NCBI GenBank assembly: GCA_021513695.1
Contig: CP084166.1
Span: 2,400,001 to 2,464,000, forward strand
Origin: Candidatus Heimdallarchaeum aukensis
GTDB taxonomy: Archaea > Asgardarchaeota > Heimdallarchaeia > Heimdallarchaeales > Heimdallarchaeaceae
DNA: 64,000 bases
Direction: 5' to 3'
A program made the position numbers and the translations under genes. Positions 22,568 through 25,576 of the stretch are shown here, one piece after another. Each line of letters opens with the position of its first letter. The stretch's first letter is position 1. The notes beneath the pieces are model-generated. The model did not search any database and was not told where the DNA came from. It saw only the letters and a program-made list of their open reading frames with translations.

Positions 22568-23305
22568 TCACTTGAATTTTTTTACGAGTTGTTTTAGAAT
22601 TGTTTGTATTGTTTCTATTTTTTCTTCTATTTTCTCCACTCTTTTAACAAGCTTATTGAATTCGTCAGCTGATACTTCTACTTCTCCAGAGACTGATTCC
22701 ATCATCGATTCTTTAATATCTATAATTCCAGGAGCAAGTTCTTTTTTCTTTGTTACTTTAACGTTATTTGCTTCGAGAAGTGTGTAAGCCAAGAAATCAA
22801 ACGTTTCTTGGATATTTTGTCCTGTTAATGCCGATGTTTCACTATAGTAGAAGTTTATTCCCGTTTCAGTCATTAGTCTCTGACAAAATTCTATAGCCAT
22901 TTTCTGTGATACTCTCCTATTTTCTGGAGGAAGATCGATCTTATTAGCTATTACAAAGTAAACTAGAATTCCAGAATTTGAACCTTCAATACTCTCTTCT
23001 AGCCATGTTCGTAGATTAGTCATTGTTTGTTGATCTTGGATATCAAATACCAACAAAGCAGCTATAGCTCCTTTATAAAAAGTTGACCTAACAGCTGAAT
23101 AGCTATCTTGTCCTGCAAGATCCCATATCTGAAAAGTGATGTCATTGTCTTCTACTTTTACTTTTTTTGAAGCAAAGTCAGCCCCAATTGTTTTAAGATA
23201 GTCTCCTGTAAATCCTTTTCCCATATATCTCTCTCTAATAGAGGTCTTTCCTACTGCTCCATCTCCAGCCAATACAATTTTAAAATTCCATTTTTTTCCT
23301 GTCAA
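22568..23305 (-). CDS. Rab/Ras-like small GTPase with C-terminal coiled-coil extension (no prenylation motif)
   Basis: G1 GDGAVGKT, switch I [9 protein letters not shown] (Rab-like TIGxDF), G3 [20 protein letters not shown], G4 ANKIDL, G5 ETSALTG. Tail [35 protein letters not shown]. TTG start lies 4 nt after the upstream gene's TGA. Confidence 0.85.
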   Translation of the reverse strand: [245 protein letters not shown]

Positions 23306-23309
23306 GATT

Positions 23310-23996
23310 TCACCCTTGTTGTTTGTATTTAGCTAATTCTTCTTCTAGCTCATCTATTCTTCTCTGAGCTTCAAGTAATCTCTTTTGGAATGTTTCTCCT
23401 ACTTCCTGCTGAGTTCTTTCAAAGTGTGCTTTTGCTTCTTCTAACTCTTTCCTCATTTTTTCTCTTTCCTCACGAGCTTTCTTTATTTCTTCACTCTCAC
23501 GAACTGTTTGAACAGCCTTTTTGAGCAATGTTTCCAAGTCATCTTTTGAAACATCAAAATTTGAGGAAGTAAGCATCTTTAGAGCGTTAAATTCATCAGC
23601 AGAGATTGTAGGTCTACTTTTCATTAGGTCTTCAACCTTCTCTTGTAGAGCTTTTTTCTCGATAAGTAGATCAGAAACCTGTGCTTTCAGTTGTCTATTT
23701 TCTTCACTTAATTGAGTAGAATTTTGTGTTTCAATATCAAGTGATCTTCTAAGATGTTCAATCTCATCAGAACTTTCTCCTAATTGCTTTATGTATCGAA
23801 CTAGCATAACTATATATTCACGCAAAAGAGGATGGATTAAATGCCAATATTGATGGATTTCTCGTTCAATATCAGATAATCTCGGATCTTTCATGTTTGG
23901 AGGGAGTTTTACAAAAACAGGGTTTTCAACATCAATTTGGGGATAATACTCTGGAATATAATTGTAGATTGTTTCTCCTTTATACTTTTTAAACAT
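23310..23996 (-). CDS. Coiled-coil protein co-transcribed with the Rab-like GTPase
   Basis: 228 aa. A globular ~75-aa N-terminus followed by long heptad-rich E/K/Q/L segments. Contains ISADEFNAL, matching VSADEFNKL in the GTPase tail. Confidence 0.65.
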   Translation of the reverse strand: MFKKYKGETIYNYIPEYYPQIDVENPVFVKLPPNMKDPRLSDIEREIHQYWHLIHPLLREYIVMLVRYIKQLGESSDEIEHLRRSLDIETQNSTQLSEENRQLKAQVSDLLIEKKALQEKVEDLMKSRPTISADEFNALKMLTSSNFDVSKDDLETLLKKAVQTVRESEEIKKAREEREKMRKELEEAKAHFERTQQEVGETFQKRLLEAQRRIDELEEELAKYKQQG

Positions 23997-24151
23997 AGTT
24001 TAACCTCACTTTTTTAATCAATTATATGTATCAATTACATTTAATAAAAGTTTTATGTCAAAGGAAAAACTAATGAAAGTTAAATTGAGAATGTTTTTTA
24101 AAGTTAGTTAGTAATTCTAAGTAGGCCTAAATAATTTACAAATCTACGATT

Positions 24152-25576
24152 GTGAAAGAAATGAGTGAAGAAAATAAAGAACAGTTTTTTGAGTTAGTGA
24201 AAGAGATAGATGAGATTGTTTTCCAACACATGAAAGATAAAGCTACATCAATAGAGTTTAAACAAGTCTTAAAAAAAGAAAAAAGTGATATTAAACCTAT
24301 TAATTCAATACTTGATGCAGAAAATGAGGAAACAGAGATATCATCAGTTATGGATAATATAGGTATTAATACAAAAAAGGCAAATATTCTTGAAGAAGAG
24401 CAGTTGTTATTAGAAGAAGCAGAGGAAAATAAAATATTTTTACAATTAAAGGACAAGTATCCTGACTATAATATCTATATAAAGCAGATATATTGTTCAA
24501 GTAGCTATCAAGAGGACAGAGTAATTCAGCTTTTACAAAAAGATCTAACCTCGCTCAAAGACATACGAATTAAGAAAAGTGAGATCAAGTTTTTTCCATT
24601 TTTATTGCATAATATTAAGTTTGTATTAGAAAAACCATTTTCTATTAGTTTTTACGATTATGAAATCCCTATCTATAGAACTTTACAAGAAGAAAAACTG
24701 CGTTTTTATCCAATAGGAGAATATCCTTTTGAAGAAAGAGAGAAAATTTTTGAAAATAAGTGGATTCCACTAATAAGTAGTTTGCAACACTCATTAATAA
24801 AATCAATTAATGATGGAAAGTTAGCTGAAAAGAGAGTAGAAAGAATAGATAAAAAAAATATTTCACCTGTTGATTTTAGTAAATTACAAGAATCAATCAG
24901 TGCTTCTATAGATAGTGCAAAGAAAGCTTTTTCAAATCCTAATAAAGAAAACACGTCTAATTTTGAAACATTTTGGCAGAATGAGAAACAGTTCAACAAT
25001 GCTATATTACAATTAAAAAAACAGTTAGTAAATATAGAGCATGAGTTAAAAGAAGAAGATGATAGGATAAAAGAAGAGTATCTAGAATTAAAGAAAAAAC
25101 AAGTAAAATTGAATAAAGAAGCAAAAATGTATAAGCAACTTGAAAATCAAGGAATAAAAATTGAACGAGAAAAAAAAGAAAAAGTTGCAAAGATGTTATC
25201 TGAATTTCAAAGCAAAAAAGAATCAGTTCAGAAAAAACTCTTTGAATTTAAGAAGAAAAAGAACTTGTTGGAGCAACTGACAGAGCTTATTAAAAATAAG
25301 AATATGACTGATTTTGAAAAGAACTTTAGAATGCTCTTCAAGAAAGATGTTGACAATGCATTAGAAGCAATTAAAACAAGCATCGAAGAGCAAGGATCTA
25401 ATATAAATTTAGTTGAAAGTAACCATCTTGAAAAAAATATTAGGTTACATGTTGTTTGGGTTCCAATATTCTTAATAACCTTCAAAGCATCACAAGAGGA
25501 ACGTAAAATAGATGGAAAAGCATTTTATTCAGATTTTGATAATAAAGTCTTCATTATTTCTCCTACCACAAGTTAG
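24152..25576 (+). CDS. Large coiled-coil protein, divergent from the GTPase operon
   Basis: 474 aa with an acidic N-terminus and extended K/E/Q/L coiled-coil region. Contains ISPVDFSKL, similar to the SADEFNxL motif. GTG at 24152 or ATG at 24161. Confidence 0.6.
   Translation: MKEMSEENKEQFFELVKEIDEIVFQHMKDKATSIEFKQVLKKEKSDIKPINSILDAENEETEISSVMDNIGINTKKANILEEEQLLLEEAEENKIFLQLKDKYPDYNIYIKQIYCSSSYQEDRVIQLLQKDLTSLKDIRIKKSEIKFFPFLLHNIKFVLEKPFSISFYDYEIPIYRTLQEEKLRFYPIGEYPFEEREKIFENKWIPLISSLQHSLIKSINDGKLAEKRVERIDKKNISPVDFSKLQESISASIDSAKKAFSNPNKENTSNFETFWQNEKQFNNAILQLKKQLVNIEHELKEEDDRIKEEYLELKKKQVKLNKEAKMYKQLENQGIKIEREKKEKVAKMLSEFQSKKESVQKKLFEFKKKKNLLEQLTELIKNKNMTDFEKNFRMLFKKDVDNALEAIKTSIEEQGSNINLVESNHLEKNIRLHVVWVPIFLITFKASQEERKIDGKAFYSDFDNKVFIISPTTS

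Follow-up and report, generated by a model that had tools for sequence, protein, structure and literature searches.

A Rab-like GTPase with a conserved coiled-coil tail and its co-encoded coiled-coil partner in Heimdallarchaeaceae

Within the 64,000 nucleotides of contig CP084166.1 of Candidatus Heimdallarchaeum aukensis that were analysed (positions 2,400,001 to 2,464,000; hereafter the window), two neighbouring genes on the minus strand encode a coiled-coil protein of 228 amino acids (aa), here called the partner, and a Rab-like GTPase of 245 aa, the C-terminus of which is itself drawn out into a coiled-coil tail (Table 1). On balance we consider it somewhat probable that the two constitute a conserved small-GTPase module, in which the co-translated partner and the tailed GTPase act in a complex and the tail replaces the lipid anchor. 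An original prediction of a GTPase-plus-coiled-coil module at this place, made from the letters of the window and a list of its open reading frames (ORFs), stands in so far as the two genes form a conserved operon, being neighbours in all 26 loci surveyed, and the tail is devoid of cysteine, whereas the argument that it drew from a short motif shared by both proteins fails. The three ORFs on which it was built (those of the GTPase, the partner and a divergently transcribed 474-aa protein) are present in the ORF list where it had placed them, and the TTG start codon of the GTPase gene follows four nucleotides after the TGA of the partner gene, as a direct reading of the junction confirms.

Results and discussion

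The GTPase is, judged by its best matches, a Rab-like member of the Ras superfamily. All G-box motifs are found in Rab/Ras form, as had been claimed (GDGAVGKT at residues 14-21, TIGADF at 39-44, WDLAGQD at 61-67, NKID at 121-124 and ETSA at 156-159), and the scores lie well above the cut-offs for both PF00071 (136.2 against 21.6 bits) and TIGR00231 (70.2 against 42.5), whereas the Arf score in Pfam is far lower than that for Ras (56 against 136 bits). The closest relative in the PDB is the Thorarchaeota Rab 7EZB (E 1.5e-34), followed by Rab7, Rab11, Rab9 and Ypt proteins; the top 60 PDB matches are all Rab/Ypt proteins or Thor-Rab, and not Ras, Rho, Ran or Arf, and several orthologs bear the name 'Rab family GTPase' given by the NCBI pipeline. 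All 27 orthologs have YLKTIGADF without variation, and they likewise keep [FYH]Q[IV]WDL[AG]GQ[DE], FYKG[AT], ANK[IV]D and ETSA[LK]. The RabF reference motifs of Pereira-Leal and Seabra reportedly read IGxDF (F1), KLQIWDTAGQE (F2/G3), YYRGA (F4) and LVYDIT (F5). Set against these, we take IGADF to match RabF1, the F2/G3 region as well as FYKGA (F4) and LVFDI (F5) to be approximate matches, and SYSAVRS in the RabF3 region to deviate.

The G domain is followed by a conserved extension of about 70 residues, in which all orthologs show the same order of elements: a conserved short motif, a variable linker and a heptad helix of about 30 residues that is rich in isoleucine. In the alignment of 26 orthologs the short motif, GIIDIKE in the window, reads [GS]I[IL]D[VILT][KRD][ED], and distant tailed GTPases possess a related hydrophobic-x-[IL][IV]xP motif at the same position. 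The helix, with the ortholog consensus [VIA][ST]xx[ED][FIL]xx[LI]xxR[IV]xx[IL]Ex[KR]LxT[IV]QxI[IL]KK[IL]VxK, forms a clean heptad from F216 to F244, the a and d positions of which are occupied by F216, L219, V223, I226, I230, I233, L237, L240 and F244; the coiled-coil C-terminus that had been predicted for this one protein is a feature of the whole clade. Every one of about 67 ortholog clusters at an identity of at least 62% carries the tail. A second tier of GTPases, 40-59% identical and aligned over 71-100% of the query, is found in Kariarchaeaceae, other Heimdallarchaeia and Helarchaeota, and those inspected all carry the linker and a terminal ..LExR[IVL]xxLxxx[IVL]Kx[IV]V.. helix. The absence of a C-terminal cysteine, noted earlier for the window protein, is general: no cysteine available for geranylgeranylation occurs in the tail of the window GTPase or of any of the 27 orthologs, and the hallmark of a prenylated Rab is thus missing.

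Relative to the published Asgard Rabs, the coiled-coil tail appears to be a conserved novelty of this GTPase clade. Thor-Rab and the MKD1 Rabs are described as truncated proteins without a C-terminal extension, and the C-terminal extension of Rabs was concluded to have arisen during eukaryogenesis (PMC10933270, Tran et al. 2024). The GTPase shares with Thor-Rab 7EZB the G domain, the Rab-type interswitch and the absence of a prenylatable cysteine; unlike Thor-Rab and MKD1, it is extended by a conserved segment that contains a coiled-coil helix, its operon also encodes a dedicated partner, and it does not fit the description of a 'primordial Rab'. In the literature searched we came across neither a coiled-coil-tailed Asgard Rab nor the partner family, which does not prove that they are unpublished.

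The helix is more likely to be a coiled coil than an in-plane membrane anchor, because it is rich in glutamate, its hydrophobic a/d stripe is narrow, its mean hydrophobicity is negative and the last residues are EEE or QEE in many orthologs. It is very unlikely that the tail is an in-plane amphipathic membrane helix in the manner of the MinD and FtsA targeting sequences or of the N-terminal helix of Asgard ArfR, which would substitute for prenylation directly and leave the neighbouring genes incidental. Its hydrophobic moment (0.4-0.7) and the net charge of +3 in the last 18 residues of the window GTPase would suit such a role, and archaeal-type lipids permit the binding of amphipathic helices (bioRxiv 10.1101/2024.02.28.582541), but the properties of the helix just listed point away from it, and neighbours that are kept in 26 of 26 loci are not incidental. 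Among proteins of solved structure, the nearest sequences (all with E >= 0.005) come from the helix of MtrG, the coiled coil of TRPP2, influenza HA2 and the stem of the coronavirus spike. Assemblies of the TRPP2, HA2 and spike type are trimeric, and isoleucine at both a and d favours trimers. The isoleucines at a and d and these nearest solved coiled coils together hint at a three-helix arrangement of the tail, which is unproven. A tailed paralogue is also encoded by Ca. Heimdallarchaeum aukensis (P0187), in an unrelated gene context.

The association of the two genes was surveyed with one genome per species, which gave 26 Heimdallarchaeaceae loci. Conservation of the pair in relatives, on which the original prediction had made itself depend, is seen throughout: in all 26 loci the partner gene is followed by a GTPase ortholog on the same strand, and the pair recurs in Helarchaeota and beside the deep partner homologue P0195. 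In the 23 loci with a measurable, uninterrupted junction the distance from stop to start ranges from -1 to 25 nt, and GGTGA, GAGG or GGGG is situated 5-9 nt upstream of the GTPase start; in the window the junction reads GGGTGA-AATC-TTG on the minus strand, the GGGTGA, which resembles a Shine-Dalgarno (SD) sequence, overlapping the TGA of the partner gene. Partner, GTPase and the NFACT and CBS-domain proteins that flank them in the window are 91-94% identical to those of Ca. Heimdallarchaeum endolithica PR6, where the gene order is the same. When the same pairs of genomes are compared, partner and GTPase orthologs are 54-68% identical, against 48-61% for NFACT and CBS and 22-30% for a membrane protein and the 474-aa protein of the same neighbourhood, which argues for strong purifying selection on the pair. 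The ortholog clusters of the two proteins are similar in number, the partner having 72 (all from Heimdallarchaeaceae or from metagenome-assembled genomes (MAGs) of Heimdallarchaeota, at 54-99% identity). Beyond the family, a contig of Helarchaeota (L029) encodes a partner homologue of 252 aa (E 6.5e-8), the gene of which stops 11 nt short of that for a tailed GTPase of 274 aa, and P0195 is encoded 2 nt upstream of a tailed GTPase. By their distribution, the two genes are tightly paired within Heimdallarchaeaceae and patchily so in other lineages, and the tail appears older and more widespread than the 228-aa partner.

Against this background it is highly improbable, and was already disfavoured, that an ordinary Asgard small GTPase happens to stand beside unrelated coiled-coil genes with which it shares nine similar residues by chance. 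Asgard genomes contain very many small GTPases each (PMC12962969), and the pairwise match of the nine residues, to which we return below, has an E value of only 0.047; but the operon is kept across genomes with orthologs as divergent as those above and into another Asgard class, the junction does not exceed 25 nt, and the linkage survives local rearrangement.

One junction is interrupted. In locus L019 (DAOVKB010000015.1, 6676-8818), which is represented by a single MAG, a 2.1-kb insertion lies exactly between the partner stop and the GTPase start and contains a reverse-strand ORF of 642 aa (6743-8671) with a Cas12f1-like TNB domain (PF07282, E 2.3e-7). By its content it is a TnpB-like or insertion sequence (IS)-like element that splits an otherwise invariant junction.

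The partner itself belongs to no Pfam, NCBIfam or PDB family above threshold; its match to the Rab11-FIP3-like domain PF25450 (E 0.0023, 18.6 bits) is below the cut-off of 31.9 and reflects coiled-coil composition. An exhaustive profile search of 1.84 billion representatives recovered only 18 proteins of the family at E <= 1e-3, with no eukaryotic homologue among them, and the family therefore appears to be small. In its AlphaFold2 (AF2) model the partner is all-helical (helices 38-126, 133-146, 151-166 and 169-227), and its N-terminus (residues 1-37) is disordered and yet highly conserved. Two segments are retained across deep homologues: in residues 192-204 Q196 and F203 never vary and E193 and Q204 hardly do, the Helarchaeota included, these residues being invariant within the orthogroup as well, and in YWHLIHP H55 and P56 are invariant and W51 nearly so. 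Worded as W..LHP and FE[KR]TQxEVGxxFQ, these are the true signatures of the partner family.

The most deeply conserved residues of the partner (W51, H55, P56, E193, Q196, F203 and Q204) are thus not those of the coiled-coil core or of the motif shared with the GTPase, and tailed GTPases exist without the 228-aa partner. Both observations would suit an explanation that is partly compatible with the one we prefer, namely that the partner is a regulator resembling a GTPase-activating protein (GAP) or a guanine nucleotide exchange factor (GEF), or an effector, which acts on the G domain through the FE[KR]TQxEVGxxFQ helix or the N-terminal peptide, while the tail is a homo-oligomeriser (dimer or trimer) that adds avidity. 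A precedent is given in PMC10505919, in which the coiled coil of the intraflagellar transport (IFT) proteins IFT81/74 is reported to be an unconventional GAP for the non-prenylated RabL2. However, no catalytic arginine or glutamine finger can be assigned from the partner sequence, Pfam and NCBIfam recognise neither TBC nor roadblock, longin or DENN domains in the proteins of the cluster, and there is no structural match, so that we regard this explanation as quite unlikely.

The motif that had been taken as a link between the two proteins reads VSADEFNKL in the tail and ISADEFNAL in the partner, and a superficial third instance, ISPVDFSKL, is indeed found in the 474-aa protein. The codons (GTA TCA GCT GAC GAA TTC AAT AAG CTT and ATC TCT GCT GAT GAA TTT AAC GCT CTA, respectively) differ for five of the seven identical residues, as had been described, which excludes a recent copy at the DNA level. 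The pattern [IV]S..[DE]F[NS].L, which was defined after the fact, occurs three times in the six frames of the window, in each case in one of these three genes. The E value of the match between the two 9-mers comes from a single BLASTP comparison, and with an estimated 60 or so adjacent gene pairs in the window, among which a few such matches would arise by chance, it is not significant alone. We rejected the possibility that the tail is a duplicated piece of the partner, given the codon differences and hhalign probabilities of 7.8% and 2.2%, which likewise provide no profile-profile homology between tail and partner.

As a conserved functional link the motif does not hold. Its strict form is present in 4 of 27 GTPase orthologs and 4 of 21 partner orthologs, and it is the relaxed form, hydrophobic-[ST]-x-x-[DE]-hydrophobic-x-x-[LIM], that is common (25 of 27 tails and 18 of 21 partners); the partner orthologs relax it to [IVLA][ST]x[ED]E[FILV]x[AS][LM]. 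In deep partner homologues the motif is absent, the aligned region lacking the capping serine or being deleted, and these proteins still keep the deeply conserved residues named above. Nor is it found in the deep tailed GTPases inspected, including the tail of the one beside P0195. Among orthologs of the 474-aa protein it is confined to the genus (ISHVDFNKL in L001) and replaced elsewhere by IIELDEKVI or LINLDSILI, and the model of that protein places the helix start at F242 with the conserved D241, not S238, as the likely N-cap. Co-variation is missing as well: across 25 genomes the two 9-mers share on average 2.8 of 9 residues within a genome and 2.78 when genomes are mismatched, and the 7 of 9 in the window are an outlier.

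A capping box combines Ser/Thr at the N-cap with Glu/Asp at N3, and a hydrophobic staple combines hydrophobic residues at N' and N4 (Harper and Rose; Aurora and Rose). Helices in the partner model begin at A133 and K151, directly after I131-S132 and V149-S150, and both I131-S132-A-D-E135-F136 and V149-S150-K-D-D153-L154 combine a capping box with a staple at these helix starts. VSADEFNK also opens the helix of MtrG from Methanothermobacter marburgensis (8Q3V chain G), and the coiled coil of TRPP2 (3HRO) begins in a similar way; the opening of the tail helix is near-identical to both, and the similarity extends over about 25-35 residues. MtrG and TRPP2 are unrelated to the GTPase, and the similarity is best read as convergence on a helix cap followed by heptads, which suggests that 'VSxxEF + R[IVL]DxIEEK' is a recurrent coiled-coil opening in unrelated proteins. 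Membership of the tail in the MtrG family was rejected: the scores for PF04210 (20.9 against 27 bits) and TIGR01149 (20.5 against 50.65) remain below threshold and arise from the same VSADEFNK opening, and the tail ends at K245 without a transmembrane (TM) helix. SADEFN is a generic helix N-cap, not a shared binding motif, and its near-identity in the two proteins of the window is a lineage-specific coincidence. As for the argument for protein-level selection that the original prediction had built on the codons, these do differ, but the difference reflects a helix cap selected for separately in the two proteins and not selection for a shared ligand. In consequence the motif is unsuited to genome mining.

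These results bear on the possibility that the tail pairs specifically with the 228-aa protein, with that of 474 aa or with both to give a heteromeric coiled coil, that [IV]SxxEFNxL sets recognition or register, and that the GTPase reaches a membrane or complex in this way. The operon is conserved and its junction tight, the relaxed motif stands directly before a helix in GTPase and partner alike, the isoleucine-rich a and d positions are compatible with a multi-helix bundle, and the motif is common to all three proteins in this genus. On the other hand, the strict motif is restricted to a minority of orthologs and lost in deep partners still encoded beside the GTPase as well as in orthologs of the 474-aa protein, the 9-mers do not co-vary within genomes, tail and partner have no profile similarity, the same motif opens unrelated coiled coils, and the helix that follows it in the partner (133-146) is short and modelled with low confidence. 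In this strong form we consider the possibility unlikely.

Two further proteins accompany the pair. A membrane protein of 426 aa in the window has an ortholog, 23-29% identical, that is convergent with the GTPase gene and directly follows it in 26 of 26 loci. It carries zinc ribbons of the form CxxC...CxxC at its N-terminus (21288-21347) and C-terminus (22464-22520; PF13240, E 8.5e-8), and a crude analysis of hydropathy and the positive-inside rule predicts about six TM segments, with both termini inside. The place of this protein is occupied in the Helarchaeota contig (L029:6836-7639, SUPS01000013.1) by a helical, low-complexity protein of 267 aa, convergent to the tailed GTPase and without a Pfam match.

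The 474-aa protein, which the original prediction had noted for its related motif, is linked to the pair by neighbourhood, orthologs (22-30% identity) being present in 22 of the 22 loci long enough to show them. In most genomes the gene lies beyond that of the membrane protein, whereas in this genus it is situated upstream of the partner and divergent from it; since it stays in the cluster at different positions, the linkage has survived rearrangement. The ORF probably starts at the ATG at 24161 and encodes 471 aa, because the database protein P0193, 100% identical to its product, has this length, and M4 is invariant in the orthologs. Its AF2 model (19 sequences; predicted local distance difference test, pLDDT, 69; predicted template modelling score, pTM, 0.49) comprises a disordered part (1-89), an alpha/beta domain (91-190) that is completed by adjacent C-terminal strands (425-470), and a coiled-coil hairpin (278-380). 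The model has no significant structural match, and the protein has none in Pfam or NCBIfam.

Several observations concern the surroundings of these genes. Compared with loci L002-L026, the block of partner, GTPase and membrane protein is inverted in this genus (window 17000-30000) relative to NFACT, CBS and Mut7-C, and a set of small genes of about 3 kb that normally separates NFACT from the partner in L002-L026 is missing. In 15 of the 15 loci inspected among L002-L026 the hexamer TGGTTA precedes the ATG of the 474-aa ortholog by 8-9 nt (e.g. L013:8908-8913); it could represent a variant SD sequence or a regulatory signal, and the window, in which the gene has moved, lacks it at the corresponding position. 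Elsewhere (L027:5156-7596 and L028:6817-9037), beside the more distant tailed GTPases P0157 and P0177, a protein of 207-209 aa without a Pfam match is encoded that contains ..GRRxxxSxxxKxGxxxGPxxGAL... Together with a small multi-TM protein it may constitute an alternative partner set for the same tail.

The window has a GC content of about 31%. ARAGORN detected no tRNA gene, and no Rfam family reached the gathering threshold, in the whole 64 kb; a defence system was excluded, as PADLOC returned no meaningful matches. The region between the partner and the 474-aa gene (Table 1) is a putative promoter region. Two 233-aa ORFs at 25700-26401 (minus strand) and 25719-26420 (plus strand) overlap almost wholly, and only the latter possesses a domain (two CBS domains, E 3.1e-26); the former resembles a shadow ORF of low complexity, such as is usual in AT-rich DNA.

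Table 1. Features of the locus; coordinates are positions in the window
Feature	Coordinates	Strand	Basis
Membrane protein of 426 aa, 29 nt from the convergent GTPase gene	21258..22538	+	
245-aa Rab-like GTPase, TTG start, operon gene 2	22568..23305	-	ORF list
GTPase C-terminal helix: VSADEFNKL (22649-22675) and 4.3 heptads F216-K245 (22571-22660)	22571..22675	-	
GIIDIKE, GTPase residues 193-199, short conserved linear motif that immediately follows the G domain	22709..22729	-	Tail alignment, 26 orthologs
G domain, GTPase residues 9-175, G1-G5 and Rab-type interswitch motifs	22781..23281	-	Pfam Ras PF00071, E 9.7e-40
Operon junction: SD-like GGGTGA (23315-23310), AATC spacer, TTG (23305-23303)	23303..23315	-	
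228-aa coiled-coil partner, ATG start, TGA stop (23312-23310), operon gene 1	23310..23996	-	ORF list
FERTQQEVGETFQ, partner residues 192-204, family signature, candidate interaction surface	23385..23423	-	
VSKDDLETL, partner residues 149-157, start of helix 151-166, second cap-like motif	23526..23552	-	
ISADEFNAL, partner residues 131-139; I131 = N', S132 = N-cap, F136 = N4 of helix 133-146	23580..23606	-	
YWHLIHP, partner residues 50-56, second deep signature	23829..23849	-	
Divergent intergenic region between partner and 474-aa gene; A/T-rich TTTATTAAAT element, and GTGAGGT SD-like element upstream of the partner ATG	23997..24160	.	Sequence read directly
474-aa ORF, divergent from the partner	24152..25576	+	ORF list, GTG start 24152
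471/474-aa protein: disordered N-terminus, alpha/beta domain, coiled-coil hairpin	24161..25576	+	AF2 model, orthologs
ISPVDFSKL, superficial third occurrence of the motif, within the 474-aa gene	24860..24886	+	

If partner and GTPase indeed form a module, their synthesis would be coupled through SD-mediated re-initiation at the junction, and they would function in a complex. In analogy to IFT74/81 and to Rab effectors, which typically are dimeric coiled coils, the partner would have an elongated and probably dimeric form and serve the GTPase as effector, adaptor or regulator, and the C-terminal helix of the latter would be an oligomerisation or docking element, either homo-oligomeric or associated with helices of the partner, which in place of lipidation would hold the switch in position. 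The zinc-ribbon membrane protein would be the most plausible membrane receptor. A more specific version, which we put forward as a tentative and rather doubtful proposal, is that the tail helix plugs the GTPase into a 228-aa coiled-coil scaffold anchored by the six-TM double-zinc-ribbon protein; this would be a lipid-independent localisation of a Rab in Heimdallarchaeaceae and, patchily, in other Asgard archaea, and it could predate the prenylated hypervariable tail.

Several points weigh against the existence of such a module. A deep partner homologue is separated from a tailed GTPase by 2.5 kb in L031, no GTPase is present within 5 kb of another in L032, and the tailed GTPases of L027 and L028 are adjoined not by the 228-aa partner but by the common 207-209-aa protein and the small multi-TM protein; because of these separations and this different neighbour, the tail is not strictly dependent on the partner. 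The role of the membrane protein is drawn from its neighbourhood and a crude hydropathy topology and nothing else, and the oligomeric state of the tail from its a/d composition and a weak similarity (E >= 0.005). The AF2 models of the partner and the 474-aa protein are monomer models of moderate confidence (pLDDT 68-69), and the surrounding housekeeping genes point to no function.

Conclusions

The combination of a switch GTPase and an elongated coiled-coil protein is reminiscent of Rab7, Rab11 and Rab9 with their coiled-coil effectors. RILP and Rab11-FIP3 are dimeric coiled-coil Rab effectors. Unlike the eukaryotic Rab7, Rab11 and Rab9, the GTPase has neither a geranylgeranylated cysteine nor the logic of Rab escort protein (REP) and GDP dissociation inhibitor (GDI), and it lacks a hypervariable domain. 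To our knowledge, the IFT GTPases have no coiled-coil tail of their own. RabL2, IFT22 and IFT27 on IFT74/81 are similar to the GTPase of the window in possessing a Rab-like G domain without a lipid anchor, and it is coiled-coil proteins, not insertion into a membrane, that place and regulate them (PMC10505919); the likeness is one of analogy, as we found no sequence relationship between the partner and IFT74/81. By analogy, then, the locus may work most like a Rab with its coiled-coil effector, or like the non-prenylated Rab-like GTPases that are held by IFT74/81.

Among archaeal systems, ArvA-ArvB-ArvC of Euryarchaeota, which acts in vesiculation, is likewise a small-GTPase operon that includes a zinc-ribbon protein and has been linked to membrane remodelling (PMC10927574). 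ArvA is an Arf/MMR_HSR1-like protein that starts with a helix, the other two being proteins of DUF2073 (ArvB) and DUF2072 (ArvC), and homologues of ArvA were found in only 8 of 183 Asgard genomes (PMC10927574). We excluded an ArvABC operon at this locus, neither DUF2073 nor DUF2072 being present in any of the four cluster proteins, and also a module of the MglA/MglB or Rag/Ragulator type, since no match to roadblock/LC7 or longin domains was obtained in Pfam, NCBIfam or the fold search with the 474-aa protein.

We know of almost no partners of small GTPases in Asgard cell biology. The heimdallarchaeal class of Asgard archaea is generally placed closest to eukaryotes. The sequences compared here point to a whole clade of Rab-like GTPases with a conserved, non-lipid C-terminal extension, in contrast to the truncated Asgard Rabs published so far. 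If the proteins do form a complex, they would provide a small and tractable example of a Rab-type switch that is localised without prenylation, and a candidate cognate pair of GTPase and effector, or GTPase and regulator, for the cell biology of Asgard archaea.

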